From Alphaproteobacteria bacterium (GTDB taxonomy: Bacteria > Pseudomonadota > Alphaproteobacteria > UBA828), in assembly GCA_965214705.1 (NCBI GenBank), contig CBDCCI010000002.1, positions 2,400,001 to 2,464,000 on the forward strand: a DNA stretch of 64,000 nucleotides. The letters run 5' to 3'. Position numbers and translations under genes: made by a program. Each line of letters begins with the position of its first letter. Within the stretch, counting starts at the first letter, position 1. Shown piece after piece: positions 17,568-53,974 of the stretch. The notes below the pieces were generated by a model, which saw only the letters and a list, made by a program, of their open reading frames with translations, was not told where the DNA came from and searched no databases.

Positions 17568-17990
17568 TAGAGCACAATCCTATCTGACTGAATCGAAAGG
17601 GATTCCCAAGGCGTCTGGTTTGTGCTTCACACTGTCTGCCGGGAGGGAGGCCGGCAGACATGTCGAAAGCGCTTTCCCTTGATCTTCGGGTTCGGGTCCC
17701 TGAGGCGGTGGCCGAGGGCGTGAGCCACCGCGCCGTTGCGGCGCGCTTTGGTGTGAGTGCGGCGAGTGTCAGCCGTTGGTGCAGGCGGGCACGTGTTGAG
17801 GGCGAGTCTCGCCCGAGAGCACTGGGCGGAGACCGTCGCTCCGCTCGCATCGAAGCGCATCGTGCGCTGATCCTCGACGTGCTGGCTGAGACCCCCGACG
17901 TCACCATCGAGGAGTTGCGCCGCCTGCTCGCCGGGCGCGGGCTCGACTTCGGCTATGGCACGATCCAGCGCTTCCTCGTCCGCCAGGATA
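17568..17990 (+). mobile_element. Truncated IS630-family element (left end plus N-terminal HTH ORF from 17660)
   Basis: TAGAGC-type end; MSKALSLDLRVRV..ARFGVSAASVSRW..GGDRRS..PDVTIEEL. Confidence 0.75.
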
Positions 17991-18450
17991 TGGCCTGCAG
18001 CGCGACAGTGGCGGAAAGTATCGACATACAGGGTGCCGGAACCGGCGATACGGCACCGAAACCGCGCGTGGTCGTGGTGGACTACGGGGTCAAGGGAAAC
18101 ATCGTCGACAACCTCGTTCGCAGGGATATCGACGTCACCGTCGTGCCGGCAGAAGCCTCCTCGAGGGACATTCTGGCGCACGATCCCGACGGTATTCTGC
18201 TGTCCAACGGTCCCGGCGATCCGATGGCCGTGGCGCCGTACACCGTTCCCATGATCGAGACCCTGCTCGAGCGGAAGCTGCCGTTCTTCGGCATCTGCCT
18301 GGGGCATCAACTCCTGTCCCTGGCGCTTGGCGGAAAGGTGACCAAGATGCCTTTCAGCCATCATGGCGCCAATCATCCGGTTCTGGAGAAGGCCAGCGGC
18401 CGTGTGGTGATCACCAGCCAGAATCACGGTTTCGTCGTCGACCGCGACAC
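17990..18450 (+). pseudogene. carA: Internal fragment of carbamoyl-phosphate synthase small subunit (class I GATase domain)
   Basis: VVVVDYGVKGNI, DGILLSNGPGDP, FGICLGHQLL, HHGANHPV, ITSQNHGFVVD; lacks the N-terminal domain and the C-terminal HPE. Confidence 0.8.
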
Positions 18451-21318: not shown

Positions 21319-22062
21319 GGCGGCAGGTTCCCGAACCGTTGGGCGAACGCGTTCATGACCGCCGGGGCCTGACCAGCAATACCCGACGCCGGCAGCCTTT
21401 CATGGCCAGCTGCGACTGCGTGAAGGGGCACGCCAAGTCCTTGTACAGGTGTTATATCGTTCGGCCTCCATGGCCAGTCAGGCGGCTCCGTTTCGCTCCC
21501 GCAAGCGTCAGCTTGCACAGGTGTGGCGGGTTACTTTCTCTCTCGCGTGCTTCACTCACCACGAGATACATCATGTAGCGAGTCGCTCGGCGGGAATAAC
21601 AAGAGATAGTATCGGTCCGGGCGCTTCACCTGAACGGTGCACCTTCCTGGATGGCAAGGTGGGGCGGCATGGCGCTTATTCGTAGCTGCTTGAGAGTGTC
21701 GAGATAATCGGGGCGCGGGGAGAGAGTGGCGAAGCGCTCCGATTCAGCGGGGATGAGCGACAAGGCGATGGCGGCCGCCTTGGCGAATCCGGTGCGAACC
21801 ACCATGAGCGCCATCGATGCGCAGACCGGGTGCGAGAGCGCAGGCTCGAGCGATCATTCGAGGGCGTAGCGCTGACAATTGGCGTCTGGCGGTGCAGTGG
21901 CGAAGTGACACGGAAGGGCGTTGGCCACAGGCAGGGAGGGCGGAGCGCGGGCGATGGCGGAGCGCAGCAACGCTTGACGTATCGCGACACGATACGGGAA
22001 GGATGATGCTGGCGCATAGCGCCGAGCGCGGGATGGCGATGCCGTCCGCCCCGCCGTCCGAC

Positions 22063-22503
22063 AATCAAGGGTCGCAAACGCCACATCCTCACCGACACCG
22101 GCGGCCTGTTGGTTGCCGCTCAGGTCCACGCCGCCAACATCCAGGATCGCGACGGCGCTCCCTCGGTGCTTGCGTCCATCCGCCACGCCTTCCCCTGGCT
22201 GCGTCACGTCTTCGCCGATGGTGCCTATGCCGGCCTCAGGCTCGCGGCGGCTCTGGAGCGGATCGGTCGGTGGACCCTGGAGATTGTCCAGCCCCGGCTG
22301 GTACGCGAGGGTTCGATATCCTGCCGCGCCGCTGGGTGGTCGAGCGCACACTGGCTTGGTTGAACCGCAATCGACGGCTCGCCAAGGACTTCGAGGCCAC
22401 CGTCGCCACCGCCCAAGCGTGGCTCTTCATCGCCAGTGTTCAACTCCTCACCAGAAGACTGGTAAGATACTGAAAATCAATATCTTATTATAGGCCAGAC
22501 TCT
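22063..22503 (+). pseudogene. IS5-family (IS1031/IS427-like) transposase C-terminal remnant
   Basis: [29 protein letters not shown], then a frameshift to [25 protein letters not shown]. Confidence 0.8.
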
Positions 22504-22615
22504 TAGACTATACTCTTCGCGGTCGTTGTCTGCTGGGACATTCGCTGTGAGACAACACCTGGAGTCATGGCGAGATCAGCGGCCTTGATCGGTGTCTTCG
22601 CGGGCGAACCCCTGA

Positions 22616-23350
22616 TCAATAGCCGAGAACGCTGTAGTCGCCGTTCACGATCAGGCGAATCGAGACGTAGAGGCCCAGCAGGGCGAACAGCACCCACGGG
22701 CAATTCAGCGCCCAGATATAGATGTACATATCCTTTCGGCCGAGGCGGCTTTGTCGATTGGCCACGAAGAAGCTGACCCAGTAGACCGACGTCGCGTAGG
22801 TCAACTGCCAGAATATCATCGCTCCCATAATGCCGGCGACGAGGGCGGGCAAGAAATCGACGGTGAAGGCGGCAAAGAGGATCAGCGTCGGTACCGGCGT
22901 TACGAAGCCGTTGGCGATATCTACGTTGTAACCGTATGTGCGCCGGTCCGCGTAGGAACTGTCGAACTGGGAATACGTGGCCCAGACGTCCGCCCACATC
23001 GTCGACGACAATATTCGCGTCAAGGGAACCCTTCCAGTAAGGAATTCGGCGGCTGGTGTCCGGCCCGTTTCCCGCCGGCGTTCGCGCCAGTATTGGGCGC
23101 GCTTCTCGATGTAGTCGCGGTTGAAGAACAGGCATATCTCCCAATGGCAGATCACCAGATTGATGGAAAAGAAGAGGATCAGCAGTGCATGAATGACGTC
23201 GAAATCCCCGCGGACGCCGTAGCGCGCACCGATGCCGGACGCTGTCAGAATTGCGATGACCAGCCCCGTGAATACGACCGGCGCAATCGCCAACCGAGTC
23301 CGGTGGGTGTCGCGACCCGAACGGGTTTGCGCGGCTTGCTTTTCGGCCAT
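22616..23350 (-). CDS. EBP/EXPERA-like membrane protein, putative sterol delta8-delta7 isomerase
   Basis: Several TM helices; WATYSQFDSSY resembles EBP WKEYxxxDSRY; QLTYATSVYW and LNCPWVLF resemble the EBP C-terminal motifs; located in the sterol cluster. Confidence 0.6.
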   Translation of the reverse strand: MAEKQAAQTRSGRDTHRTRLAIAPVVFTGLVIAILTASGIGARYGVRGDFDVIHALLILFFSINLVICHWEICLFFNRDYIEKRAQYWRERRRETGRTPAAEFLTGRVPLTRILSSTMWADVWATYSQFDSSYADRRTYGYNVDIANGFVTPVPTLILFAAFTVDFLPALVAGIMGAMIFWQLTYATSVYWVSFFVANRQSRLGRKDMYIYIWALNCPWVLFALLGLYVSIRLIVNGDYSVLGY

Positions 23351-23538
23351 GTGGTCCCATCCTCTCTGGCGCTGCGGCGTTGCCTCTCGCCCCATTGTAC
23401 CCTGTGGAAAGTTCGACGCCCCGAACAAGGGCGCTACGCCTGGGACTCCGTGGATATCGGCGTCATGAAGCGAGGCATCGGAGTTTCCCATGGCTTTCCG
23501 GTCTTGGGGACGACGTGCGGCTCTGGCAGAATGTGCCC

Positions 23539-24570
23539 ATGAATCGCACCTCCGCCACCCGATCGAAAGCGCGCTCCCTCGCGGGCCTCGCCCCGGACGA
23601 AGTAAAGTCCACGGTCGATGGATACACCGAAATCTTTGACGCCGGCCTGGAGCACAGGAAAGAGCATTATCGCTCGTTCGTGAGTCGCTACTACGACCTG
23701 GCGACCGACTTCTACGAGTTCGGTTGGGGCCAATCCTTTCACTTCGCACCCCGCAGCCGGGGCGAGAGCTTCAAGGCATCGCTGCTCAGACACCAGCATT
23801 TTCTCGCTGAAAAGCTGTCCCTGAAGCCGGGTATGCAAGTAATCGATCTGGGATGCGGGGTCGGCGGACCGATGGGCAATCTGGCCCGTCATTTCGGGGC
23901 GAGCTTTGTCGGCGTCAACAACAACGCCTACCAGATCGAGCGCGCAAGACTGCACACTCGGGATGTCCAGTCGTTATGTCGCTTTATTCACAGTGACTAC
24001 ATGGAGATTCCCGACGACGACGACCGCTACGATGCCGCCATGGCGATCGAGTCCATGCCCCACGCACCCGACAAGACAGCGGCGTTCCGCGAGGTCTTGC
24101 GCGTGCTGCGTCCGGGGGCCTGTTTCGCGGGCTACGAGTGGTGCGTTACCGACATATTTGATACCGGCAAGACGGAGCACCGGCGAATAAAAAACGATAT
24201 CATGGCCGGGAATGGGCTGCCGGATATCGCGACCACGTCGGAAGTTTCCGCCGCATTGCAGACGGCTGGATTCGAGCTCCTGGAAGCGCGCGACCGCGCA
24301 CCCGAAGCGGACCCGGAGATGCCGTGGTACCGTTCCTTGCAGGGCCGCGACCTCAGTCTTTCGAGTATTCCGCGCACGCCGGTCGGCCGCGTTCTGACTA
24401 ATTTCACTTTGCGGGTGGGAGAACGGCTGCGGCTCTTTCCCGAGGGCGCCCGCGCAGTCAGCACGCTCCTGAATGCGGGAGCGGACGCGCTGGTGGACGG
24501 CGGCAAGTCCGGCGTCTTCACGCCGATGTTCTTTTTCCTGGCCCGCAAACCCGGGCGCCCGCGCGACTGA
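23539..24570 (+). CDS. smt: Sterol C24-methyltransferase (ERG6/SMT family)
   Basis: SMT region I FYEFGWGQSFHF, SAM motif DLGCGVGGP, region III IESMPHAP, region IV PGACFAGYEW, C-terminal GVFTPMFFFLARKP. Confidence 0.92.
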   Translation: MNRTSATRSKARSLAGLAPDEVKSTVDGYTEIFDAGLEHRKEHYRSFVSRYYDLATDFYEFGWGQSFHFAPRSRGESFKASLLRHQHFLAEKLSLKPGMQVIDLGCGVGGPMGNLARHFGASFVGVNNNAYQIERARLHTRDVQSLCRFIHSDYMEIPDDDDRYDAAMAIESMPHAPDKTAAFREVLRVLRPGACFAGYEWCVTDIFDTGKTEHRRIKNDIMAGNGLPDIATTSEVSAALQTAGFELLEARDRAPEADPEMPWYRSLQGRDLSLSSIPRTPVGRVLTNFTLRVGERLRLFPEGARAVSTLLNAGADALVDGGKSGVFTPMFFFLARKPGRPRD

Positions 24571-24629
24571 ACGAAGCGGGCCTTCGTCCGCGCGGCGCTG
24601 CGCGAGACCACCCATACTCTGGACGGGGA

Positions 24630-27600
24630 TCAGGCGGCAGCCGCTTCGGGCGGGGGTGGCGACGTGTCGGCGGCACACGGAGCGTGGGCGGCGAGACCCA
24701 GCCGCTGGCGGCGGCGCTGCTCGTAGAGGGCGAGCGCGTGCAGCGGGAAATACTGTCGATACAGCACGTAATCCAGGAGCGCCGTGCGGAAGAAGACGCC
24801 CGCCATGTCCTGCTTGGGCCATGTCCCGTCCGCGTCCTGTGCGTCGAGCAGAAAGCGGGCGCCCCGCGAAATCGCGGTCCAGTTCGATTCGCCCGCCTCG
24901 AGGAGCGCGATCAACGCCCACGCGGTCTGGATGACCTGGCTTTCGTCGTGCGGGACATACCGGCCGGTCAGGCATCCGCTGTGGTGCTCGCCCCATCCGC
25001 CGTCTTCTCGCTGGCGCTCCAGCAGCCAGCGGCAGGCCGAGCGAAGCGCCGGATCGCCGGGGCCGGCCCTGGCGGCAAGAAGACCCCTGACCCCGAAGAG
25101 GGTGCCGTAAATGAATTGAACTCCCCATACGCCGCGCCACGACCCGTCGCTTGCCTGGGTCCAGCGAAGCCAGGCACCGGCCCTGGACATGGCGCCCGTC
25201 ACCGCTCCGTTCGCGATTTGCGGAACGTCCTCCATACAGGCGGCGAGCGCCGCGAGGCAGGACGCGGTGCACTCGACATAGGATTGCTCGGTCATCGAAT
25301 CGCCGAACATCTCGGCCGGATTCATCCACTCCAGACCGAAAGCCGAGCGTCGCGCCTCGTAGCTGCCGAAGCCGCCATCGCGGTTCTGGCAGCGCAGCAT
25401 GAACCCGACCGCATCGCGCAACGCGCTTGCGTGCGCAGCACCGCGACCGGCGGCGTGAAGTCCGAGCACCGCTTCCGCAGTGCAGTCGCTCACCGGCCAG
25501 CCGTGCCATCCTCCGGCAAAGCACCAGCCGCCCCTGGGGTCGGTTCGATAGGCCTCGCGAAACCCTTCGAAGCTGGCGGCGATCTGTTCCCCGAGCAGGA
25601 AGTCGGCGCCGCGCTGCAGCGCGTCCCCTACCCCGCCGAACGCGGGCACCGCCGCCAGCGCCTGCAAGGCGAAGCCGCTGTCCCACGAGGCGCTTCTCGC
25701 GCCGACGACACGCGCACCCTCTTCCTCGTCTTCCCAGATCCAGTCGTCCAGCTTCGCGAGCGCCTGGCGCAGATCGGCGTCGTCCGGATCGCGCAGCCAC
25801 AGGGCAAGCATGTTGAGAAGGCCGCTCACCGGAGAGATGCTCGTATGGCTGGTGGTCTGCAGCTCCCATCTGATCTGCCGGACGATCGCCTCCGTGCATC
25901 GGGCACGCAGGCGTTTGCCGTGGAGCCGATTGAACACGCGCGCAATCTTGTATCCAACCTTGAGCCACACGCTCGGCCGCGCGTAGAGGTCGGCCTCCCG
26001 CAGGCGATTGCGGGCGGCGGAGAAATCGACCTCGGCAAAGCCATGGGGGTACAGCTCCTCCCGCAACGACGCGATCGCGGGCGTGACGGGCGCCTGGAAG
26101 CGGTGCGGGTAGATCGCCGCCATGGCCATGTAGATGAGCCGGGTATGGCAGTACCAATTCGAAGGATGCAGGGGCAAGCGGCGCGGCAGGCTCCACAGTT
26201 CCGGCAGAACGGCGTTGACCCCGCGCCAGTCGTAGAGGTTCAGCAGCGCCAGCCAGAACTTTCCCCAGCTCGGAATGCCCACGATCCCCTCGGCCTGGAT
26301 GAAGCGCCGGGCCGGCTCGACCAGCGGATCGTCCCGCTCGACCCCGAGCAGCCTGGCCGCGACGTAGACCAGGGCGGTGACGAAGAGGTGGGGCGAAGAG
26401 TGCTCGTGCAGACCCCACGAGCCCGCTTCGAGACGGGTCCGTTCGAACGAGCGCAGCACGCGCCGGCGCCGGCCGGGCTCGAGCGGCCGCCCGATGATGT
26501 GGTGCAGCAGCACATATTGCGCGGTGAGCATGGGGCACCAGACCATCTCGCCCTCCCAGCCGCCATCCTCGCCCTGGAGGCTCAGGAGGTGCGCGGTCGT
26601 GCTCCCCAGAGCCGGACCGGCATCGGGCGCCTCGGAGTCCTTCGGCCGGCCGGACCCGGAAGCGTGGGGCCGCGGCGGCATGGAGTGCAAAAGTGCGCGG
26701 GCCAGGCTGTCCAGGGCTCGCTCGTCATTCCGCCCGCCCTGGCGTCTCGACTGGCGTAACTGCAGAGCCCAGCGCAGGAGCCACAAGAGACGAACGGTGA
26801 GAGCCCCGAAGATCTTCAGGCCCCGACGCGGAGCGAACCGGCGCAAGGAGAGCGGAATCTCCACGGCCGCCGCACGGGCCGCCGTTGCGAAAAACGCGAG
26901 ACCCATCTCGAGCGCGGATCGGTCTTCGCAGGCGAGTATCCGCGTGGTCCGGTCCCGGTAATAGGAGTTTGTCCGCAATCCTCGGTAGACCGCGTGTCTC
27001 ATCGCCACCGCCTCGGCCCGATGATCGGCAAAGACCTCGTAGAGCCCCATGGCGAGCAGCTCCGGCACTTGGGTGGCCCGGAAACGCCCGGCGGCGAACT
27101 CGCGAAAGCTGCCGCTCTCGGCGAGGGCAAGCGCGTCACCGAAACCGAGGGTCATGCCGACCGCCGTCATGGGATGGTAGTGCCCGGCCGCGTCGCCGAT
27201 CAGCACACGACGCGGGGTACCGTATGTGACTCGCGGCCGCAGCTGATTGGCCGCAACGTGGAATTGCCCCGCCCGCACCGCTTCGACGAACCCCGGCCTG
27301 AGAGCTTCCGGCAGCAGAACGGCATGGGATTCGGTCAGGAAGCCGATCCGGTCCTGGCGTGTCCAGCGGTCCAGCGGAACGTCGACGATGATCCGGACGC
27401 AACCCTTTGCCAAACCGTATGCGAGAATCGGCCCCGGCCCGCCGAGCAGCACATGCCCGTGACCCTCGAAGGGCAGGCTCACGTCGCTCACCGTGATCCC
27501 CAGCATCCGCGAGCAGAGCATCGGGTCTGTCGACAGGCCCAGGGATTGGCGCACGATCGACGCCCGGCCGTCGGCGCCGACAATCCGCGCGGCGTCGAGG

Positions 27601-28043
27601 GTGTGAACCGTGCCGTTGTTGCTGTAGGACAGCCGCTCGTCTTCGACCGCATTCACCCGCGCATGGGTGAAGAAATCCACATCCGCCTCCTTCTCGACGG
27701 CTTCCCGCAGTGTCGAGACGAGCAAGGCGTGTTCGCAAGCCAGACCCTGCGAGCCATTCGTGTAGGGAAGGACGATCGGCTCCGAGCCGTCTTCCGGGAA
27801 CACCACGAAACCCCTGCCCGTGGCGCTGCGGGGCAGGGTGTCGAGCCCGATCCCGATGTCCTGCAGTATCTGTACCCCAGGTGGATGCAGCCATTCGCCC
27901 GCCAGGCGCTCTGACCCCTTGGGATTCGCTTCGAGCAGAACCACCCGGGCGCCCTTCCGCGCGTGAGCGAGCGCGCACAGGCTCCCGACCGGCCCCGCGC
28001 CGACAATGGCCACGTCGTAACGCCGCGACGCGGCGCCGCTCAT
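24630..28043 (-). CDS. Squalene epoxidase - oxidosqualene cyclase fusion protein (~1137 aa)
   Basis: N-half: IVGAGPVG, RLAGEWLHPPG, GADGRAS, IGDAAGHYHPMTAVGMT (SQLE motifs). C-half: QW repeats, WYCHTR, catalytic HGWPVSDCTAE (OSC type, not SHC DXDD). ATG overlaps the CYP51 stop (ATGA). Confidence 0.9.
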   Translation of the reverse strand: MSGAASRRYDVAIVGAGPVGSLCALAHARKGARVVLLEANPKGSERLAGEWLHPPGVQILQDIGIGLDTLPRSATGRGFVVFPEDGSEPIVLPYTNGSQGLACEHALLVSTLREAVEKEADVDFFTHARVNAVEDERLSYSNNGTVHTLDAARIVGADGRASIVRQSLGLSTDPMLCSRMLGITVSDVSLPFEGHGHVLLGGPGPILAYGLAKGCVRIIVDVPLDRWTRQDRIGFLTESHAVLLPEALRPGFVEAVRAGQFHVAANQLRPRVTYGTPRRVLIGDAAGHYHPMTAVGMTLGFGDALALAESGSFREFAAGRFRATQVPELLAMGLYEVFADHRAEAVAMRHAVYRGLRTNSYYRDRTTRILACEDRSALEMGLAFFATAARAAAVEIPLSLRRFAPRRGLKIFGALTVRLLWLLRWALQLRQSRRQGGRNDERALDSLARALLHSMPPRPHASGSGRPKDSEAPDAGPALGSTTAHLLSLQGEDGGWEGEMVWCPMLTAQYVLLHHIIGRPLEPGRRRRVLRSFERTRLEAGSWGLHEHSSPHLFVTALVYVAARLLGVERDDPLVEPARRFIQAEGIVGIPSWGKFWLALLNLYDWRGVNAVLPELWSLPRRLPLHPSNWYCHTRLIYMAMAAIYPHRFQAPVTPAIASLREELYPHGFAEVDFSAARNRLREADLYARPSVWLKVGYKIARVFNRLHGKRLRARCTEAIVRQIRWELQTTSHTSISPVSGLLNMLALWLRDPDDADLRQALAKLDDWIWEDEEEGARVVGARSASWDSGFALQALAAVPAFGGVGDALQRGADFLLGEQIAASFEGFREAYRTDPRGGWCFAGGWHGWPVSDCTAEAVLGLHAAGRGAAHASALRDAVGFMLRCQNRDGGFGSYEARRSAFGLEWMNPAEMFGDSMTEQSYVECTASCLAALAACMEDVPQIANGAVTGAMSRAGAWLRWTQASDGSWRGVWGVQFIYGTLFGVRGLLAARAGPGDPALRSACRWLLERQREDGGWGEHHSGCLTGRYVPHDESQVIQTAWALIALLEAGESNWTAISRGARFLLDAQDADGTWPKQDMAGVFFRTALLDYVLYRQYFPLHALALYEQRRRQRLGLAAHAPCAADTSPPPPEAAAA

Positions 28044-29449
28044 CGGAAGACGCTCGGCTGCGCGCAGCGACGGTAGCGGACCCGGCACGGTCTCTCGGGT
28101 CCCGTCACCCAGCTGCCGTAGTTCGGACGCGGAAACGCGCCGCTGGGAGTGAAGTCGAAACGATCGAGCAGAACGGTCCAGATCGCCTTGAGCTGCATGT
28201 AGGCGAAGTTCTTACCCATGCACGCGTGCTTGCCGCCGCCGAAGCCGATCAGGGCGTAGCGGTGTTGCCTGTCCTCGCTGGCGGGAGGCGCGAAACGGTC
28301 GGGGAAGAAGCGCTCCGGGTCGGCGAATATGTGGGGCAAGCGGTGAGAGACCGCCGGCGACACCATGGCCATGGAGCCGGCGGGCACGACACGGCCTCCG
28401 TAGCGCAGGGGTTCGAGCACCTTGCGGATCAGCAATATCAGCGGCGGGTGCAGCCGCTCGCACTCGCGGACGGCATTCTCCAGAGCCGGCTGGCGCTGGA
28501 GACTGTCGATGCTCATGCTCCCCGCTTCGCGATAGACGTCCTGCACCTCGTCTCTTACCCGCGCCAGGTACGCCGGCGCCCGGAGCAGCTCCAGACCGGT
28601 CCAGGTCGCGAGCACCGCACTGGTGTGCTGGCCCGCGAACAGCACCGTCAGCAGGATCCCCGTGATCTCGTCGTCGCTCAGGGCGCGGCCGCTCTTGTAG
28701 CGGGCGTTCATGAGCGTCTGCATGAAGTCGTCGGGGCTGGCCCCCGCATTCCGGCGCGCCGCCATGATCCCGCCGAAGAGCTCCGCCACCCGTCGCCGGG
28801 CCCTGTCGCGCTTTCGATGCGACGCAACGGGAAGCCTGGGAAGAAAGAATCCCAGGGTGTTAATGCCCTTCTGCAGGTCGTGGTAGGTCTCGGCAAAGCC
28901 GGTATCCACCCGATCGCGGACTTCCTGTCCGATCAGGCAGCGGCTGGCGATCTTGACCGTGAGCTCGTTCATCGCGTGCGGCAGATCGATTTCCCCATCC
29001 TCGCCCAGGGCGTCGGCGAACTGCCGCGCCTCATCGAACATGACGAGGGCGAACCTGCGCATTGCCGCCTCACGGAGCGCTGGAAAGAGAAAGCCCAGCT
29101 GCTCCGCCATGATGTCGGGGGAGGTGTCGTAGGCCACGCCGCGCCCGAAGATGGGCACGGTGAAGCGGTAGACGGCCTTGGCGTTCAACTGCTCCTCGGG
29201 CGTCCTGAAATAGAAGTCGTGGGCTTGGGGACCGGAGAAGAGAACGAAAGCGCGGGTACCGAGCCGGAAGCGGAAGAGCTCACCGTGCTCGCGCCAGCCG
29301 CGGCTCAACATGGCGACCGGATCTCTCTGGAACTCCGGCAAATGGCCGATCAGCGGCCAGCGGCCCGCAAGCTCGGGAAGGGGCTCGTCTGCCCGCGGCG
29401 GCAGATTCGCCGTAGGCAGGGTCGCCATGCTGTCGGTTCGGTTGGCCAT
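28040..29449 (-). CDS. cyp51: Sterol 14-alpha-demethylase (cytochrome P450 CYP51)
   Basis: YRFTVPIFGRGVAYD, I-helix LFAGQHTS, ECERLHPP, haem motif FGGGKHACMG. Confidence 0.92.
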   Translation of the reverse strand: MANRTDSMATLPTANLPPRADEPLPELAGRWPLIGHLPEFQRDPVAMLSRGWREHGELFRFRLGTRAFVLFSGPQAHDFYFRTPEEQLNAKAVYRFTVPIFGRGVAYDTSPDIMAEQLGFLFPALREAAMRRFALVMFDEARQFADALGEDGEIDLPHAMNELTVKIASRCLIGQEVRDRVDTGFAETYHDLQKGINTLGFFLPRLPVASHRKRDRARRRVAELFGGIMAARRNAGASPDDFMQTLMNARYKSGRALSDDEITGILLTVLFAGQHTSAVLATWTGLELLRAPAYLARVRDEVQDVYREAGSMSIDSLQRQPALENAVRECERLHPPLILLIRKVLEPLRYGGRVVPAGSMAMVSPAVSHRLPHIFADPERFFPDRFAPPASEDRQHRYALIGFGGGKHACMGKNFAYMQLKAIWTVLLDRFDFTPSGAFPRPNYGSWVTGPERPCRVRYRRCAQPSVFR

Positions 29450-29457
29450 CTCCGCTC

Positions 29458-30558
29458 TCAATGGATGAAGGGCAGCATCGCGAAGCGCGCCCGCTGCGTG
29501 TAGCGCTCCCACAGCTCGCCGTACTTGGCGCGGCAGCGGCGCTCGTCGCGTCTCGAACGGTGCCACAGCAAGCCCGCTAGCCACGCCGGCAACAGGAAGG
29601 GAGCCCAGGACGTAAGCCCGGTGGTCAGGGCGAAGGCGAGGTAGACGCAGATCTCGCCGGTGTAGTTGAGGTGCCGGCCGATGCCCCAGAACCCGGAGAC
29701 CAGGAGGCGCCCGTCCAGGGTACGGGCGGGCTTGCCCCAGATCCTAACGTTGGAATCGCGCTTGAAGCGGTGCTTCTGCTGATTGGACCCGCGGAAGAGC
29801 CAGAAGCCGAAAACGAAGAGCACGACGATCCCGGCGGCGGCGGCCGGAGACAAGGGCTCCGGTGCGTGAACCAGCCACCAGCCGGGGAGACAGTAGAAGA
29901 AGGGCACCAGCACGTAATCGCCCCAGACCAGCATCCATCCGAAGCGCTCGCGGACGATGTCCCAGGTATGGATCATCCCCTGTTCGAACTGGAAGTAGTT
30001 GAGCACGTAGAGGAAGGTGAAGGTCTGGTAGAGCATCATCGCCAGGGTCAGCTCGCCGTAGGTCTCGTACTGCACGGCGGCAAACGATGCGTTGAAGAGC
30101 GCTAGGCCGATGAGGGAGGGGCAGTAGCTGAAGAGCTTGATATCCAGCCCGAGCCAGGATGGAGCGGCGTCCACCCCGTAGAAGAAGTCCCGCCATGATC
30201 TGGGCGATGCATGAGGCTTTCGCACCCCGCGCAGGTAGAGCCAGCCGGAGAGGGCGAACGCGAATCCGTTCGCCACGACGAACAGGGCGAGCAAGTGGGT
30301 ATGCAGCACCGAAAGGGAGAGCACGCCGGAGGCTTGCGCGCCGCACGCCGCAATCATGACGATCAGATAGAGCGCGAGGCCGTTGAGCTTGTAGACGCGC
30401 TCGTTCCCGTCGGCATCCGGGCCCGTGATCCGACGACCCGGCAGCAGCAGCGAAGCCACGAAGAGGAGGGCGATGAACCCCAGCACCATCGCCGCCGCCT
30501 CGAGCAGGGTCTCGCCCGAGAGCGCCGACGAGAGGTTGAGCGCTTCAGGCGGCGGCAT
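29458..30558 (-). CDS. ERG24/DHCR7/LBR-family sterol reductase (probable C14 reductase)
   Basis: DIVRERFGWMLVWGD, NQQKHRFK, LLVSGFWGIGRHLNYTGE, RDERRCRAKYGELWERY. Confidence 0.9.
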   Translation of the reverse strand: MPPPEALNLSSALSGETLLEAAAMVLGFIALLFVASLLLPGRRITGPDADGNERVYKLNGLALYLIVMIAACGAQASGVLSLSVLHTHLLALFVVANGFAFALSGWLYLRGVRKPHASPRSWRDFFYGVDAAPSWLGLDIKLFSYCPSLIGLALFNASFAAVQYETYGELTLAMMLYQTFTFLYVLNYFQFEQGMIHTWDIVRERFGWMLVWGDYVLVPFFYCLPGWWLVHAPEPLSPAAAAGIVVLFVFGFWLFRGSNQQKHRFKRDSNVRIWGKPARTLDGRLLVSGFWGIGRHLNYTGEICVYLAFALTTGLTSWAPFLLPAWLAGLLWHRSRRDERRCRAKYGELWERYTQRARFAMLPFIH

Positions 30559-31642
30559 CGCCGCTCTCCGACCCGCGCGCCAGATGTTCCTGCCACTTGC
30601 GCACGGTCACTTTCTGAAAGGCCCTGACCACCGGATTGAACTCGACAGGACGGGCGTCCCAGTGTCTTTCGTATCCCTCCTGCTCCGCCTCCAGCGCGAA
30701 CCGGTCCTGGGTGAGCAGGGGGGCGATGAGCAGGCGATTGGAGACCTTCATGACCGCGGTCATGGCGAAACGGGGAATGCGCACCGGCAGCAGAGGTACT
30801 TTCAGCGACTTGAAATAGAACAGGAAGAACACCCGGCTGGTGCGCTCGTCGACCGGCAGCACGAAGAGCCAGTGCTTTATTGCGTCGTCGGTGTTCGACC
30901 ACTGGTAGGGGTACTCGTAGCAAAGCTCCATGCGGTTGGTGTTGAGCCGCCGATGATCGACGAAGAGGCCCGAGATGCGCCCGCGCCCCACGTGCGTGTC
31001 GTAGGCGAGATGCACGTTGTCGCCGAGGGTCTCGCAGCGGGTGAGGGTGGCCCCGTCGAAGGGCCGGTAGCGGCGGTGCAGGTGTGCGTGGGTGAAGTCG
31101 CTCACATTGTCGATCACCATCGAGTGGTGTGCCGACCAGGTGAAACAGAGCGGCACGCAGGCCCAGCGGCCGGATCCCTCGAGCTCAGGAATGTCCGGAA
31201 TCCGGCGCTCCTCCGCCAGCGCCGGATCTCCCGGGAAGAGCCAGATCAGACCGTAGCGGACCTTCACCGGATAGGTCTTGAGCGCAAGATTCGGAAAGCT
31301 TCGCCCCTCGCGATCATGGGGCACCCCGGCGGGACGCCCCTTCCCGCCATACTCCCAGCCATGGTAGGCGCAGACGAGCCGGCATCCCTGCACGTCGCCC
31401 AGGGAGAGCTTGAGCTGGCGATGCGCGCAGCGATCCTCGACCGCCTGGAAGGTGCCGTCCTTTCCCCGGAAGAGCGCGATGGAACGCTTCCAGAAGACGA
31501 CCTCGATCACCGTCTCCGGCTTGATCCGGCGCAATTCCTCGACCGGATACCAGTAATTCGGGTCCATGCCCGCGGCGCGAGCCTGCTGGCGCAGGTTGCC
31601 GGCGTCCTCGAAGCCGGGCGGCGCGGCGGGCGCCGCCCTCAT
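30545..31642 (-). CDS. sdmA: Rieske non-haem iron oxygenase, SdmA-like sterol C4-methyl oxidase
   Basis: Rieske CAHR..CAYHGW; mononuclear Fe site DNVSDFTHAHLH; position between an SDR and sterol genes. The sdmA label is inferred from context. Confidence 0.7.
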   Translation of the reverse strand: MRAAPAAPPGFEDAGNLRQQARAAGMDPNYWYPVEELRRIKPETVIEVVFWKRSIALFRGKDGTFQAVEDRCAHRQLKLSLGDVQGCRLVCAYHGWEYGGKGRPAGVPHDREGRSFPNLALKTYPVKVRYGLIWLFPGDPALAEERRIPDIPELEGSGRWACVPLCFTWSAHHSMVIDNVSDFTHAHLHRRYRPFDGATLTRCETLGDNVHLAYDTHVGRGRISGLFVDHRRLNTNRMELCYEYPYQWSNTDDAIKHWLFVLPVDERTSRVFFLFYFKSLKVPLLPVRIPRFAMTAVMKVSNRLLIAPLLTQDRFALEAEQEGYERHWDARPVEFNPVVRAFQKVTVRKWQEHLARGSESGDAAA

Positions 31643-32267
31643 GGCGCGCTCCCGCCTGCCATCATCCGCATGCCCTGGTCCGGCGCGGGATCACCCTCCT
31701 CACGCGTAACATGCCGACTCGCGGCGTCCTCGCACGGGCGCTTCGCGTGCGGGTTCGCGATCTTGTTGCGGCCGTAGTGGAACGCATAGGCCTCATGAAC
31801 CGCGGCACGGAGGCCGGTCGGCCGATAGCCGAGCTCCCGTTTCGCCTTGGAGATGTCGGCGTGGCGGCACTTTCGCAACAGGCGTATGGCGCCGGGGGTG
31901 AAGCGCTGGGGAAAGCCCGGGTGAACCCGACTCAGATAGAAGCTCGCGATTTCGGCAAAGGTTAAGGGTTGGGCAGGCTCTCTCTCGAGAGCCTGCCCAA
32001 CCCTTTTGAACGAAGCCGCGGGCCACGAGAGGCGAAGTTGAGCTATGTGGAAAGTGCGCTGATGTCAGCGTCAGGCGGCATCCACCGGCAGCAGAGTTGC
32101 GCATAAAATCGACGCTCGCGCCGGTCTTTCGGCAGGCATGCGGGCGCACGCTGCGAGGACTGAGCGGGGTGTGAGCCGAGGGCTGTCAGCCCGGCTCAAG
32201 CGGAGACAGGTTCGGTCGTGCGTCGGCGCTTTGGCGCCGTTGCGCGGGGCCGAAGCGAGCGGGCGTC

Positions 32268-33509
32268 TCACGGTTTCCCCCTGTGGGTCGGCGGCAGCGC
32301 CGGCGGGCCGCGCGTCGAGCGGGGCTCATGGCGGCGGCGGATTTCGCGGACGAGGCGCATGACGCCGCCGCAGTGGGGGCAGGCCACGGGCGCGGTGCCG
32401 ATCTCGGGCTCTTCGTCGGGCTCGGCCCGAGCGCCGTCCACGCTTCCCTCGGGGGCGGCGCAGCCGAGGGCGCCGAGAGCCTGGCGTGCTCTCTCCAGCG
32501 TGCTGGCGCGGCAGCCGTTGGCGAGGATGCCGAAGTAGCGAGTGCGGTGCATGCCGTCCGGCAGGACGTGCCTCAGGAAGCGGCGGATGAACTCGTCGGC
32601 GCTCACGGTGGCGATGCCGTAGCGCGGCTTTCTCTGCCCCGGCGCCTTGGGCTTTCGGTGGCGGAAGGAGACCGTCTCGCCGTCGAAGGAGACGATGCGG
32701 CTGTCGGAGATGGCGATCCTGTGCGTGTAGTGCGAGAGGTACCGGAAGACCTGCTCAGGCCCGCGGAAGGGCCGCTTGGCGTAGACCACCCAGTCCCTGG
32801 CCCGGGCGGCGGCAAGCGTGGCGTGGAACTCGCCGGGATTGGCGAGGTGGGCGACGGTGCCGTGGAACTCCAGGTCCCCCCGGCCGTGGGCGCGGGCGAG
32901 CTCCTCGAGGAAGAGGCGGCGGAACAGGCTGCCGAGGACCTTGACGGGGGCGAGGAAGGTGGTGCTCCCCGTCTTCCACTCGCCACTGTCTACGTCGAAG
33001 CCCGCGTTGGGCACGACCACGTGCAGGTGCGGGTGGAAGCGGAGCTTCTGATCCCAGGTATGGAGGACCGCGGTGCCGCCGATGCGCATGCCGCCGTGGC
33101 GGGGATCGGCGGCGATGGTGCGCAGGGTCTCGGCGACGGCCCGGAAGAGGATGTCGAACACCACCCTGCGGTTGCAGAAGGCAATGGCGGCAACCTCCTT
33201 GGGCAGGGTGAAGACCACATGGAAGTAGGGCACCGGCAGGATGTCCCCGGCGCGCTCCTCGCTCCAGAGGTTGGCGGCGAGACCCTGGCAGGTGGGGCAG
33301 TGGCGGTTGCGGCAGGAGTTGAAGAGCGGATGCTCGCGCCCGCAGCCCTCGCAGGCGTACATGTGGCCGCCGAGCACGGCGGTGCGGCACGCCTCGATGG
33401 CGCCCATGACCTTGAGCCGGGCGGCGTCGATGCGCCCTTTGTGGCGCTCACGGAAAGCGGCGCCGGCGCGGCGGAAGATCTCCGCCACGCCCGCGCGTTC
33501 GGCCTCCAC
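32268..33509 (-). CDS. IS91-family (HUH/Y2) transposase
   Basis: Zn-binding CRT..CEGC..NSCRNRHCPTC; HUH LHTW..HPHLH; YLSHYTHR; RYFGILAN. Confidence 0.9.
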   Translation of the reverse strand: MEAERAGVAEIFRRAGAAFRERHKGRIDAARLKVMGAIEACRTAVLGGHMYACEGCGREHPLFNSCRNRHCPTCQGLAANLWSEERAGDILPVPYFHVVFTLPKEVAAIAFCNRRVVFDILFRAVAETLRTIAADPRHGGMRIGGTAVLHTWDQKLRFHPHLHVVVPNAGFDVDSGEWKTGSTTFLAPVKVLGSLFRRLFLEELARAHGRGDLEFHGTVAHLANPGEFHATLAAARARDWVVYAKRPFRGPEQVFRYLSHYTHRIAISDSRIVSFDGETVSFRHRKPKAPGQRKPRYGIATVSADEFIRRFLRHVLPDGMHRTRYFGILANGCRASTLERARQALGALGCAAPEGSVDGARAEPDEEPEIGTAPVACPHCGGVMRLVREIRRRHEPRSTRGPPALPPTHRGKP

Positions 33510-33515
33510 GCGCCG

Positions 33516-34394
33516 TCAGTTGCGCAACGCTGCGAAGCCTGAGATCGGGTGGTCGAGGCCCTCGAACATCTTGCCGGTGACGCGGGCGTAGTGACGGGTC
33601 GTGTTCGCGCTTCGATGGCCGAGCATGTCCCGGATCACCTCGATATCGCCGCCGCGCTCGAGGAGATGGGTCGCCGCCGAATGGCGCAGGCAATGGAAGG
33701 TGTAGCTGCGGTCGAGCTCGGCAATGTCGCGCGCCCTCCTGAAGGCGGCCTGCAAGGTCTCCGTTGCGATGGGCCTGTCGAGCGAGACGCCGTAGAAGAG
33801 CCAGCTCGTCGGACGCGGCCAGATGTTCCTGTAGTAGACGCGCAAGTAGTGGATGACGATGTCCGGCAACGGTGCCATTCTCTCGGTGCCGCCTTTGCCG
33901 GAGGGGATGTGCAGCAGCTTCTTCTCCGACAGGATGTCGCCGACCTTGATGGCCAAGGTCTCGGAGATGCGGAGCCCGCCGCCATAGCCGGTGACAATGG
34001 CAGCACGGTGGCGGAGGTCGGGTGTCGCAAGGATGAGGTGCTCGACCTCCTGCTCCGACATGTAGCGCGGCAGCTTGCCGGGCTTCTTGCGGGAGCGCAG
34101 GCCGGCGACATGGTCAGGCCAGCCGAGTGTGTCGATGTAGAGGAAGTTCAGCGCGGCGAAGGAGACGTTGGTCGTGCCCGGACTGAGCCCCTTGTCGATC
34201 CGCCCCAGGTACCACTGGCGCACCTGCTCGGCGTCGAGCTCGTCCGGCGAGGCGTCGTAGTACCTGGCCAGGTTCTTGATCTCGCAGATGTAGGCCTTGG
34301 ACGTGCTCGCGGCCAGATTGGCGATGCGGAGCTGCTCCTCCATGCGCTGGCGAAGAGGGGTGACGGTGTTCGTGTCGCACGCGGTCCCGGTCAT
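33516..34394 (-). CDS. Tyrosine recombinase/integrase
   Basis: GLRISE, KGGTER, HCLRHSAATHLLE, LGH, TRHY; N-terminal TPLRQRM typical of IS91-associated integrases. Confidence 0.9.
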   Translation of the reverse strand: MTGTACDTNTVTPLRQRMEEQLRIANLAASTSKAYICEIKNLARYYDASPDELDAEQVRQWYLGRIDKGLSPGTTNVSFAALNFLYIDTLGWPDHVAGLRSRKKPGKLPRYMSEQEVEHLILATPDLRHRAAIVTGYGGGLRISETLAIKVGDILSEKKLLHIPSGKGGTERMAPLPDIVIHYLRVYYRNIWPRPTSWLFYGVSLDRPIATETLQAAFRRARDIAELDRSYTFHCLRHSAATHLLERGGDIEVIRDMLGHRSANTTRHYARVTGKMFEGLDHPISGFAALRN

Positions 34395-36039
34395 TATCGA
34401 TCTCCCTGGATCGCGACGGCGCGCCGCCGGACCGATCCGGCGACGGTCCGTCGCAGGGGTCGATGCTAACCACTGGTGATCGGGAGGCTGCTGGGGATCC
34501 GCCACCCGACGGGCGGAGCGCCACTGACGCAACCGGGAAGCGAACGCACAGAACAAACGGCACCCGCGACGCCTCGGAAATGAATGAACTCTACGCCGCT
34601 AACTCCGCGTAGCGGCTTCGTTCAAGACGAGCATGAGGCGGGTCGGAATTCGCCGGCGCGGCCGCGGGACGCCGGAGACCTCCTCGTAGAGATCCAGGAT
34701 ATCCGAGATGGTCTGGTACTCGGTGCTGAAGATGTACTTTTCGCCCGAGCGACCGTGGTGCATGCACAACACGTGCCCTTCGACGATGTCGCGCGCCGCG
34801 ACGAACTCGAAACCGCCATCGACGTAGGCACGGAGCTTGCCGTTGGTGTAGTCGCACAGGGTTCTTCCCAGTCGCGAGGGGAAGAAGTCGGCGCCCCCCA
34901 CCACCGCACAGCACGTCGCGACCACCACGTCCTGCCCCGATGCCGCCGCGCGCCAGCACTCCTGCTCGACGAGCGACTTGCTGCGCTCGTAGGGCATCGT
35001 GCGCTCCATGGGGTAGAACTGCATGGTCTCGTTGCTGGGAGCGGAGGGATCGTCCAGGTCGTATCCGACCGCGCTGAACGAGCCCGTCACCACCACCCGG
35101 CCGGCCCCCGCCTCCCGCGCCGCCTGCAGCACGTTGCGGGTACCGAGAACGTTGCACTCAAACACGTCGCGGCGATGGGCGCGGTTGCCTTCGATGGTCG
35201 AGACGTAGGCCGCGCAGTGATAGACGCCCTGACATCCCGTGATCGCCCGCCTGATGTCATCCAGATCCCGAATGTCGCCGAACGCGCGTTCGACCTCGAG
35301 ACCTTCCAGGCCCTCGTTGTTGTCCTCGTGTCTCAACAACACTCGGACCCGCACGCCCTCGTCGAGCAGCCGGCGCACGAGGTTGGCGCCGACATGCCCG
35401 GCCGAACCGGTAACGAAGACGGGCGGCATCGAAGATCCCGCCGGCATGCTCGATTCCGAAGTCATGGATGCCGGATTCCGTCAAGCGGAACGCGGGGCCG
35501 ATCCCATTCCGCGGGATGTTCGCAAGGTCTTACAGACACCGTCGCGCGCCCGCCGGCCGGCGTCAAAATAGCCCCTGCGGCGAAGCCAAGCCGTGCCCGT
35601 TCGCGCTCCCACATACCGCGAATTCTCCATGTCTGTCCCTCCATGTTCGGTAAGCCCGCGGCACCGACCGACCGGTACGAATCCAGACAGGGAAAAATCT
35701 ATGCGATTTAGTCACATAGCGTCCAAGAAAATACACTCATAGCGCTCATAAGTTATGCCAATGTATCGCACTGCCGCGTCGTGCTTCTGCGTGCTGATGA
35801 TCTCCATACTCGTCCAGACCCCTTGGCAAGGTCTGTTGGATATACCGAATCCCTCCGCCGATGAGATTGCCATTGCGGTCTCCTTCGGCGTTCTGGCCAA
35901 TATCAATGTCAGTTCCCTGCAAACCGCCGAAGACATGGAATGGGTCTGCGACCTCGTAACTGAAGCCGAGGGTCAGCCCCTCAGAGCCCTGCTGAATGTT
36001 CGAGTGCTCCCACACCAGGCTGATGTGAATATAGAAAAA

Positions 36040-36900
36040 TTAGGGTTCGCTTCCAATCCCGTAGGAGCGGCCGGAGCCAGACGTCCTTTTTTGGCTTGTC
36101 ATAGAGTTTGTCGCGGTCGTAGCGCCCGCGCCCCTGCGTGATTCCGACACGGGTCCAGCCGGAGGCGCTGTAGACGGCGCCGGTGTAGCGCGGCGTCTCG
36201 ACGAAGGTCTCGATGAGCACGGGGGTGGTGCTATGGCGCTCGGCCCAGTCCTCGGGCAGGCGGCGGCGGACGGTGGCGAGAATGTGCGAGCCAAGGTTGA
36301 GGATATGGATCCAGGGCAGGATCAGGAACCTGGGGTTGTCGATGACCAGCGGCAGGCTCTTCTCGCGCTTCTGCGGCGTCTATCCGATAAAGGCGTCACG
36401 CGGGGCGAGTTTCCAGGCGGCGGTGCTGAAGCCGAGCATGGCGACGGGCCAGCCGTCGCGGTCGTGGACAGCGTAGCGCATCTGGGCGCCGACCAGGGTC
36501 TTGTAGCCGAAATAGTGGTAACGGGCGACAAACTCGTTCCACAGCTTGCCCTGGCGGGTGCCGCGCACGACGGTGCGCGGGTCGAGGGGGCGAACGTCAT
36601 CGAGGGCCGTCGGCGCTGGGAACAGCGGCGGTTCGGTGTCCGGCCCTAAGACGATCGGCTTGGGTCGGCCCCTTTCCCACTTGGGCGGCGGCAGCGTGAT
36701 CAGGCCGTCGCGGTGCATAGCCAGCGTGGTGACGCGGGCCATCATGTCCTTGAGACCGCCGTCGGGCTTGAACCAGCCGATGCGCCGGCAAGCTCTCTCG
36801 AAAGGGCCCGGCGGGTTGGCGGCGGTGAAGCAGCGATCAGCGCGTGCAGCAGCGCCATCTCTCCGGTGGTGAAGTCACGCCCGTAATAGCGGCACTCGAC
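36040..36900 (-). pseudogene. DUF4338-domain (IS-associated) protein, frameshifted
   Basis: RYYGRDF.., LWNEFVARYHYFGYKTLVGAQMRY, AWKLAPRDAFIG, RFLILPWIHILNLGSHIL, LIETFVE..GWTRVGITQGRGR, spread over several frames. Confidence 0.7.
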
Positions 36901-39276: not shown

Positions 39277-40353
39277 TGCCGTGACCTCCATCGCTGAAGC
39301 CCGCCGTACCTCACCTCCCGTACGCAACGCCTGCCGTCCTCGGCGTCGCCAAGTACGATTTCGGAGGTGCCGAGGCTGTGAGGGCCGCCTGCGAATCCGG
39401 GTCGCTGCCTCCGCCGTAGACCGCGAGGGAGGGGGCGGCTGATACCGCCAGACCGCAGGCAGAACGGACCCTCATGCTGGTGGACACCAAAAAAGCGGCC
39501 GCCCGCCCAAGGCAGCACAACAAGGCGTCACGAGGATGGGGCAGGCGGCCGAGTCGTCCCGAACCAATATTGGGGACCGAACCTTGAGATGGAGCCGTCC
39601 GCCAGTAAGGACGTTCCCGCCGCGACCGCAGGAACGAGGCGGACGGCCCCAAGGGACGGAAGCCGAGACAGGGATCGAGCTGATGCTCCAAAGGCTCCCG
39701 CCCTTTCCGTGATGCCAATGCCTCTTCTTCCGAAAGGGCCCAGCTTCCCCGGAGCAGGCCTTTGATGAGGGCAAGGCGCTCGCTGATCGAGCCCAGGTCT
39801 CTGTCGCGACCAAGCATGGCCCGACGCTGGTTTCACGCGACGCCTGCGACCACAACACCCGCGAGGATGGCGACGAATTCGCGTATCCGCATCGTTCGAC
39901 GGCTCGCGTTGGTCACCAACCCACCACCCTCGGCAGCACCACACCAGGACCGACGTTCGGCACGACGCCGTCACCGTCGGTTGCCCGCCTCGTTCCAGCG
40001 GCGTGGTGTCATCTTGCCCTTCGTGTCCCTTGAAGCCGCTTGTCTGATATCCACCGAACCAGAGCCACCTAGAACCGACATATGGAGAGCGTCCTGCCAT
40101 TCCTGCTGCTGCGCGCGCGACACGCGCGAACGAGCGCCCTGGAGGTGAATTCTTACCGAACTATTTGTAAATTGTGTGTGCCAAACTCGGTCATGTTGGT
40201 GTTTTTTCCGTAAATGTTGGAGCACGTTGGCCACGGCGCACCTGTGCCGCCAGCACAGTCGAAGCCTCGCCGAGCGTGCGTCCCGTGCGCCGCAGCGGAC
40301 GACCGTAGGCTGCGGGAACTGGAGTGCGGACCGGGTCAGCGAAGGAGGAGGTC

Positions 40354-50630: not shown

Positions 50631-50675
50631 TTCTGGGTTCCACGCCCAAATCAGGGCAAGAGCCGGTCTTGGGAC

Positions 50676-51107: not shown

Positions 51108-51304
51108 AGCATGCTCCTACGCAACGGATATTGCAGCACGACTCACACCGTCTCTCAAAAACGTGTCTCGAAATATTCAAAAACTTTCGTTCGAATGGCC
51201 GAGATGTTCATACCTTCGGCACTCCCTTACCCAAGCGACCTCATCACGGAAGTCTGACGAGAGAACCCTCGCTCAGAGACATCTTCCAACTTATACTCAA
51301 AGCG

Positions 51305-53954: not shown

Positions 53955-53974
53955 TTCTGCTTTGGCCAGAGCCG

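Follow-up and report, generated by a model that had tools for sequence, protein, structure and literature searches.

A window of 64,000 nt from the alphaproteobacterial assembly GCA_965214705.1 (lineage UBA828; contig CBDCCI010000002.1, positions 2,400,001 to 2,464,000) very probably carries a horizontally mobile bacterial sterol-synthesis module, with a predicted seven-gene pathway whose sdmB gene is split here by an insertion sequence (IS). "The window" means this whole stretch, with positions counted from its first letter; it corresponds to C3:2400001-2464000, where C3 is the 3.04-Mb contig of a 7.92-Mb genome in three contigs. A reading made from the sequence alone had placed seven sterol-pathway genes within about 13 kb, and Pfam, NCBIfam and fold comparisons recover all seven there, at 22616-35465. 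Five of them form a minus-strand operon that runs, from high to low coordinates, through sdmB-like, sdmA-like, ERG24-type reductase, CYP51 and squalene-epoxidase::oxidosqualene-cyclase fusion genes, and the coordinates of the successive open reading frames (ORFs) give overlaps of 4 nt, 14 nt, up to 127 nt and up to 49 nt. The ORF of a sterol C-24 methyltransferase (SMT) is convergent with the operon and ends 59 bp from the fusion gene, while the gene for a 244-aa EBP-like protein is divergent from the SMT, across a gap of 29-188 bp that is set by which SMT start codon is real; the layout is the one first described. The description of a tightly packed five-gene operon stands as regards the overlapping ORFs and has to be amended as regards sdmB, which holds a 2,666-bp IS (31960-34625) with an integrase and an IS91 transposase. 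This insertion lengthens the module from about 10.2 kb to 12.85 kb. The features are as follows.

22616-23350, minus strand: EBP/EXPERA-fold membrane protein, 244 aa, candidate sterol delta8-delta7 isomerase; recognised by fold, with no Pfam or NCBIfam family
23380-24570, plus strand: sterol C-24 methyltransferase (SMT/ERG6 type); PF08498 and methyltransferase domains; start uncertain, 23380 to 23539
24630-28088, minus strand: squalene epoxidase (residues ~24-406)::oxidosqualene cyclase (~495-1135), 1,152 aa, single ORF; Pfam, TIGR03463, solved structures
28040-29584, minus strand: CYP51 sterol 14-alpha-demethylase without a fused ferredoxin, start codon uncertain; PF00067, solved relatives
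29458-30558, minus strand: ERG24-type sterol delta14 reductase (predicted); PF01222, 4quv
30545-31642, minus strand: SdmA-like Rieske oxygenase (putative C-4 methyl oxidation); Rieske and VanA_C domains, NF052579
31639-31959, minus strand: sdmB 3' piece, 106 codons and stop, 4-nt overlap with the sdmA start; in frame with the 5' piece after IS removal
31960-34625, minus strand: IS91-family insertion sequence, 2,666 bp, inside sdmB; PF04986, PF14319, NF033538, PF00589
32268-33509, minus strand: Y2/IS91 transposase of the IS; NF033538, PF04986, PF14319
33516-34556, minus strand: tyrosine recombinase of the IS; PF00589
34626-35465, minus strand: sdmB 5' piece, 280 codons, of the extended short-chain dehydrogenase/reductase (SDR) or 3-beta-hydroxysteroid dehydrogenase type; PF01370, PF01073, NF052578

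The module recurs both within the genus and far outside it. Among 20 other genomes of the genus, seven have the fusion gene at 88-98% identity, one of these genomes being a 4.15-Mb chromosome; in the other 13 congeners and in 20 genomes outside the genus, the search found either no match or hopene-cyclase-like matches of about 30% identity to the cyclase part. Six of the seven fusion-bearing congeners share the complete set of seven genes in this order, with a contiguous sdmB, one intact cluster (L028/L024) being 97% identical, and the EBP-like gene is 85-96% identical in all seven. The seventh congener (G014; loci L026/L031) has a truncated module with the fusion, SMT and EBP-like genes and a CYP51 that begins at residue 118; no ERG24, sdmA or sdmB gene turned up in the 20 kb covered. 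At the nucleotide level, similarity to more distant congeners ends at about 22570-22615 and at about 35690-35765, indicating that the module is a discrete unit of about 10.2 kb in differing surroundings.

Further, 271 relatives of the SMT emerged from a scan that took one genome per species, and the locus counts given here are for the best 80 of the 271 (70-100% identical). By their titles, these 80 records are metagenome-assembled genomes (MAGs) of Alpha- and Gammaproteobacteria, Nitrospirales, Nitrospinaceae, Binatia and Thermodesulfobacteriota, together with Gemmatimonadota, Acidobacteria, Opitutales and Rhodothermales; several are titled as sponge-derived bins, and it is from such titles of related records alone that a habitat can be suggested. 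Within 10 kb of the 80 SMT genes lie 58 fusion, 59 CYP51, 59 ERG24 and 57 sdmA genes and 55 copies of the sdmB 5' part, and the module proteins at these loci are about 70-90% identical to those of the window. The five operon genes are all present at 54 of the 80 loci and are colinear on one strand at 49 of these 54, with a median span of 8.13 kb, and the epoxidase and cyclase parts fall in one alignment, as in a fused gene, at 57 of 58 loci. IS genes were found within 10 kb at none of the 80. The recurrence of this gene set and order in congeners and beside related SMT genes shows that the cluster is not a chance arrangement.

Hidden Markov model (HMM) and solved-structure comparisons uphold the family calls made from the sequence for the epoxidase-cyclase fusion, CYP51, ERG24, the SdmA-like and SdmB-like proteins and the SMT. 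The fusion ORF matches PF08491 (SE), PF01494 (FAD_binding_3), PF13249 (SQHop_cyclase_N) and PF13243 (SQHop_cyclase_C). Its SE domain scores 84.8 bits (cut-off 20.1) and its FAD_binding_3 domain 85.8 bits (cut-off 22), which places it with the squalene epoxidases, and the epoxidase part matches human squalene monooxygenase 6c6n with an E value of 2.7e-26. The cyclase part matches human lanosterol synthase (1w6k, E 2e-127) far better than squalene-hopene cyclase (1gsz, E 1e-49), and it passes the general squalene/oxidosqualene cyclase model TIGR01787 with 500.3 bits (cut-off 322.7). Its residues VSDCTAEA align with human positions 453-460, where the SDCTAE motif keeps the counterpart of human D455, which we take to be the catalytic Asp of lanosterol synthase. 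The CYP51 protein (PF00067, 196.5 bits) has best solved relatives that are all CYP51, from 348 down to 199.6 bits, with the first other P450 at 135.2 bits and 6mcw at the top (E 7.4e-103). The reductase (PF01222, 229.9 bits; cut-off 27) is of the ERG24 type; among solved structures it is closest to the Delta(14)-sterol reductase 4quv (E 4.8e-65), by way of which a delta14 specificity is predicted. The SdmA-like protein combines a Rieske domain (PF00355, 69 bits) with VanA_C (PF19112, 54.9 bits), is encoded next to sdmB, and scores 401 bits against NF052579 (4beta-methylsterol monooxygenase SdmA) over profile positions 5-343 of 351, the next family scoring 34 bits. The sdmB 5' piece matches PF01370 (119 bits) and PF01073 (71.7 bits), scores 269.6 bits against NF052578 (SdmB; profile positions 4-259 of 328) versus 205.5 bits against HpnA, and holds a YxxxK-type sequence, YERSK, found by eye in the translation.

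The SMT scores 73.1 bits against PF08498 (Sterol_MT_C; cut-off 21.7) and 59.7 bits against the S-adenosylmethionine methyltransferase domain PF13649. All functional SMTs are reported to conserve, among other residues, GWGxxFHF (Region I) and DxGxGxxGP (Region II) (preprint 10.64898/2025.12.19.695621), which read GWGQSFHF and DLGCGVGGP in the window. Y81, F83, both Regions and the conserved residues at positions 74-154 fit at a fixed offset, and later ones were placed by eye after indels. According to the same preprint, position 249 (yeast numbering) decides propylation; placed by a rough offset alone, it is Asn278, flanked by Gly277 and Gly279, and if this mapping is right the enzyme is predicted to be unlikely to propylate.

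The interruption of sdmB is a recent event. The transposase inside it scores 379.7 bits against NF033538 (cut-off 125) and also matches PF04986 and PF14319, which assigns the element to the IS91 family. The sdmB reading frame enters the IS after codon 280 and meets a stop after 8 IS-encoded residues; in silico removal of 31960-34625 (2,666 bp) joins the two pieces into a single 386-codon open frame whose end lies in the sdmA start, and two other cut points gave early stops and no open sdmB frame. Moreover, the two pieces are contiguous in 6 of 6 congeners that have sdmB, and the empty site (31960/34624) is seen in 5 of 5 nucleotide alignments. A BLAST search of the IS against its own genome returned 130 matching pieces, with 66 full-length copies (2,600-3,000 bp) besides that of the window; the copies are about 100% identical, and their shared ends set the limits of the element at about 31958/31960-34625. 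At the left end, a perfect hairpin of 19 bp (31964-32005) precedes 14 nt that match the inverse complement of the right terminus, and the majority of copies have AA at the left flank and a terminal GTTCAA. Among the 21 genomes of the genus searched, near-identical copies occur in this genome only, which at 7.92 Mb is the largest, and two others have elements that are about 80% identical, indicating that the insertion is recent. In public runs, depth over the IS is roughly 100-fold that of the flanking DNA, and contigs from both flanks extend 23-26 letters into it, none of those listed spanning either junction by 31 letters; the reads give weak support to the IS-occupied and the empty form of sdmB alike. 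Runs X3-X14 contain 0.12-0.25 of the sampled words, and no habitat reading was drawn from them.

No close second copy of sdmB exists in the genome, its best paralogue reaching 35% identity. With sdmB split and no close paralogue, the strain is predicted to stop short of C-4 demethylation, a step that would be lost or impaired in this genome. The first reading had proposed that the locus could make C24-alkylated, partly C4-demethylated sterols; the set of families agrees with this proposal, and partly C4-demethylated products are doubtful here because sdmB is split. The IS may also lower expression of the downstream operon genes. A scan of 31500-36100 for promoters and terminators stayed at chance level, with 1 promoter-like site against a shuffle mean of 0.6 and 5 terminator-like sites against 2.2 in shuffles.

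Several results weigh against a full assignment of the sterol pathway to this locus, which was analysed by sequence, profile and fold comparison. The cyclase scores 742.9 bits against TIGR03463, below the curated cut-off of 851, and its residues at human positions 381, 449 and 453 are A, H and V, presumably a mix of the lanosterol synthase and cycloartenol synthase patterns, so that the protosterol cannot be named. The 401 bits of the SdmA-like protein lie below the NF052579 equivalog cut-off of 600, for which reason it is called SdmA-like and not an equivalog, and the 269.6 bits of the SdmB-like protein likewise fall short of a cut-off of 600, a score obtained on the 280-residue 5' piece alone. 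For the SMT, C-24 methylation is a predicted activity. Further, one low-depth contig in the public runs (depth 3.6), with several base differences, joins 31957 to 34624 over a 25-letter anchor; it hints, weakly since all anchors are shorter than 31 letters, at a coexisting variant strain whose sdmB allele is uninterrupted.

The 244-aa protein has a fold that sequence profiles miss. A structure modelled by AlphaFold2 from the family alignment (predicted local distance difference test 94.2, predicted template-modelling score 0.89) establishes the EBP/EXPERA fold: the top two Foldseek matches are human EBP, 8w0r with template-modelling (TM) scores of 0.59/0.66 and 6oht with 0.53/0.61, and all the rest have TM <= 0.23. 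VIA-align likewise gives human EBP a Z of 16.4 for 8w0r (root-mean-square deviation 2.8 A, 183 of 213 residues) and 16.0 for 6oht, the sigma-2 receptor, also an EXPERA protein, a Z of 11.3-11.5, and the next unrelated structure a Z of 7.1. In a comparison of ESM-Atlas features, 22 of 30 matches to the protein lie within the cluster set carrying PF05241. From this modelled fold and the genomic context we infer an isomerase role. The EBP-like call made from the sequence thus gains the human EBP fold and has no Pfam or NCBIfam support: the protein does not match PF05241 at E values up to 10, Pfam gave a chance-level match to NrsF only and NCBIfam nothing, and a profile of 54 family members, searched against all PDB sequences, found clathrin (E 1.4) and no EBP.

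The protein belongs to a sizeable family of its own. A word-indexed search found 564 proteins at E <= 0.001, of which the best 120 are 66-93% identical; none of these 120 has a precomputed Pfam domain, and the few that are named are each a 'hypothetical protein' of Alphaproteobacteria, Rhodospirillaceae or Nitrospira MAGs. An exhaustive search of 50%-identity representatives returned 262 relatives at the same threshold. Among 54 full-length relatives, 4 match PF05241 weakly (best E 0.0029, below the cut-off), no other Pfam family is matched by more than one, and ten of the most distant members scanned for PF05241 gave no match. Searched against a sample of 400 other genomes of the phylum, the family profile gave no match, which shows that the family is rare and affords no co-occurrence test. 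Its near-invariant residues are E71, D130, D144, N147, T151, N216 and W219. The catalytic residues of EBP itself are His and Glu pairs together with an Asn and a Trp in the last helix. No gene of the genome matches PF05241 or PF04622 (ERG2) at E up to 1, so there is no such gene to carry out the isomerase step instead.

In the pathway that these families suggest, HpnC, HpnD and HpnE would supply squalene, which the fusion protein would epoxidise and cyclise to a lanosterol-type protosterol. CYP51 would then take off the 14-alpha-methyl group and the ERG24 homologue would reduce the delta14 bond. As in methanotrophs, where oxidation of a C-4 methyl group by SdmA is followed by decarboxylation and reduction by SdmB, the pair would remove one or more C-4 methyl groups; the EBP-fold protein would shift the delta8 bond to delta7, and the SMT would add carbon at C-24. 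Congeners with an intact module should run the full pathway, and here the C-4 demethylation step would be lost or impaired. As first read, the window itself has no squalene synthase, C5-desaturase or second reductase: the other SQS_PSY and ERG4/ERG24 matches and the three FA_hydroxylase genes of the genome all lie outside C3:2400001-2464000. A search of the rest of the genome for a squalene supply found all three Hpn proteins, with HpnD (302 bits; cut-off 278.6) adjoining HpnC (249.7 bits; cut-off 250.45) next to dxr on contig 1, and HpnE (375 bits; cut-off 283) on contig 3 beside a third SQS_PSY gene.

The chances appear evenly balanced that the family of the 244-aa protein, with 262 clusters at 50% identity, is a bacterial EBP/EXPERA branch that acts as the delta8-delta7 sterol isomerase of these clusters. 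It is possible, though doubtful, that the protein is no isomerase and instead binds, senses or traffics sterols, as the sigma-2 receptor (TMEM97) does, or acts on another lipid, in which case the cluster would end at delta8 sterols. The fold does not prove isomerase activity, since the cholesterol-bound sigma-2 receptor, a sterol binder, shares it (Z 11.5), and the failure against PF05241 points the same way. Moreover, the gene is dispensable for the module: it lies within 10 kb of the SMT at 32 of the 80 loci, and among five genomes that carry the cluster with no copy of the gene close by, two have it elsewhere and three lack it altogether. Against this alternative, EBP is clearly the better structural match (Z 16.4, with 183 of 213 residues at 2.8 A), the near-invariant polar and acidic residues lie in helical segments, which suits catalysis, and the gene stays linked to sterol genes in several arrangements, being immediately upstream of, and divergent from, the SMT at 16 of the 32 loci and elsewhere at the rest, for example between the SMT and the fusion gene. 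If the isomerase assignment holds, EBP-type isomerases would not be a purely eukaryotic invention, contrary to the evolution of EBP within eukaryotes that the passages available from Hoshino and Gaucher (2021) infer, and symbiont clusters with the gene could make delta7 and, with further steps, delta5 24-alkylated sterols with bacterial genes alone.

The other alternatives concern the cluster as a whole. It is unlikely, on balance, that the cluster is decaying and silent in this strain, with the IS as a pseudogenisation step that is polar on the downstream genes. The 66 further full-length IS copies, their near-identical forms being limited to this one genome of the 21, the position of the IS, which separates the other four operon genes from the likely promoter region, and the transposase fragment and relaxase gene at the flanks would fit such decay; however, the remaining six genes are full-length open frames that cover 100% of their relatives, the identical IS copies imply a very recent insertion with little time for decay, and the IS genes point the same way as the operon, which may allow read-through. 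That the cluster modifies host sterols instead of making sterols de novo, a possibility raised for the SMT of a Chlamydiae MAG without other sterol genes (Brown et al. 2023, PMC10070321, in the passages available), is improbable here, because HpnC, HpnD and HpnE together with the fusion would take farnesyl diphosphate all the way to a protosterol. That the region is eukaryotic contamination or a chimeric assembly join is barely conceivable. The gene families look eukaryotic and the contamination estimate of the genome is 8.72%, but the cluster sits in the 3.04-Mb contig, which has an even guanine plus cytosine (G+C) content (0.60-0.69 across the region), its ORFs overlap in the manner of an operon, SdmA and SdmB are bacterial-type enzymes, and the cluster recurs in 7 of 20 congeners, including the 4.15-Mb chromosome, with synteny that reaches bacterial flanks; the contig is bacterial and not chimeric. 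A mobile bacterial sterol-synthesis module remains the best account of the region.

The neighbours of the module include a TrwC-type relaxase/helicase (17627-21100, minus strand), a DDE transposase (12471-14282, minus strand) and a transposase fragment (21817-22473, plus strand), and in the closest congener (L029) the nucleotide similarity runs on into the relaxase gene. About 5-10 kb from the cluster on its other side are two paralogous hybrid proteins (40324-42705, plus strand, and 42986-45448, minus strand), each combining GAF, HisKA, HATPase, receiver and winged-helix output domains in one chain. At 48001-58000, G+C falls to 0.54-0.58 in several 2-kb bins, compared with 0.60-0.70 elsewhere in the window, and this stretch may be foreign DNA.

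Other lipid loci lie elsewhere in the genome. A squalene-hopene-cyclase-like gene (G000:C3:2388798-2390705) precedes the window by about 10 kb, and one squalene pool probably feeds both hopanoid and sterol synthesis in the organism. On contig 1, a second SMT (PF08498, 45% identical to that of the window; L116:9359-10390, minus strand) neighbours a 622-aa GPP34/GOLPH3::cytochrome P450 fusion (L116:10809-12677, plus strand), the pair lying at C1 ~854.3-857.7 kb with IS110-type and other transposase genes nearby. A second ERG4/ERG24 reductase gene (L115:9401-10546, plus strand, equal to C1:2185400-2186545; 120 bits, 30% identical to that of the cluster) stands between a short-chain dehydrogenase gene and one for a 593-aa protein with a methyltransferase domain, possibly as a further sterol-modifying locus.

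The steranes that carry a 24-alkyl group are read as biomarkers of eukaryotes or sponges, and because of clusters of this kind, as has been published before, a bacterial origin can no longer be dismissed; whether any bacterium makes such sterols in vivo is not settled by this cluster. The present instance adds the context of a near-complete genome, in which squalene synthesis and a further SMT and reductase are encoded, a clear case of a unit of about 10.2 kb that is differently placed in congeners and lies beside mobile-element genes, a natural knock-out of sdmB by an IS, and a testable candidate for the missing bacterial delta8-delta7 isomerase.

The idea of such a locus is not new, since sponge-associated clusters and the in vitro activity of their SMTs were published in 2022-2023, and the cluster belongs to this published type, with the EBP-fold gene as its least-described part. 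In the ten top-ranked papers on bacterial sterols, 'emopamil' is not mentioned, and among ten listed papers nothing relevant links EXPERA, bacteria and a sterol isomerase; the gene appears undescribed in the main texts searched, and the supplements of Kelly et al. 2022 or Brown et al. 2023 may list it or the lineage of this MAG. The following comparisons draw on the passages available from each paper. Kelly et al. (PMC9531527), working on Ircinia sponges, found that 115 of 537 sponge-associated MAGs, from 10 phyla, carry 'clusters of steroid genes' (CSGs), and reported horizontal transfer and purifying selection. Like the window, CSGs have an ERG24-CYP51-LSS core on one strand; upstream on that strand, their 'dihydroflavonol-4-reductase' corresponds to the sdmB-like SDR and their hypothetical protein to the sdmA-like gene, and SMT1/ERG6 or FDFT1 lies downstream on the opposite strand, where the SMT lies here. 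Unlike those CSGs, the window has an sdmB split by an IS, an LSS that is shown to be fused to squalene epoxidase, and a gene for a 244-aa EBP-fold protein that flanks the SMT. ERG2 is mentioned in several CSGs, and may or may not be the same gene as that of the 244-aa protein.

Brown et al. 2023 (PMC10070321) described SMTs of sponge symbionts and environmental bacteria clustered with sdmA, sdmB and erg homologues, and 8 of 10 symbiont SMTs methylated desmosterol in vitro, some giving 24-ethyl or 24-isopropyl sterols. Fused SMO/OSC homologues appear in the Methods of that paper, as in the fusion gene here, and in contrast to the SMTs assayed there, the activity of the SMT of the window is predicted from sequence. 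As in Methylococcus capsulatus, a Rieske oxygenase and an SDR are the candidates for C-4 demethylation (NF052579, NF052578), and the closest solved relative of the CYP51 is 6mcw. Methanotrophs have a CYP51 fused to or beside a ferredoxin, and an NTF2-like 8,14-Bsr instead of ERG24 (PMC13277303); unlike them, the window has a canonical ERG24-type reductase, an SMT, an EBP-fold gene and a CYP51 whose alignment falls short of the C-terminal end of 6mcw (551 residues). The cholesterol pathway of Enhygromyxa salina and the sterol cluster of Calothrix (Lee et al. 2023, PMC10202945) similarly combine SdmAB homologues with genes for oxidosqualene, cyclisation, C-14 demethylation and C-8 isomerisation; these organisms, unlike the present one, were cultured and their sterols measured, and no SMT is mentioned for their clusters in the part of that paper available. 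Finally, the 244-aa protein differs from human EBP (8w0r, 6oht) by its 12-13% sequence identity and the lack of a PF05241 match, and it shares with human EBP the same predicted fold over nearly its whole length and a context of sterol synthesis.

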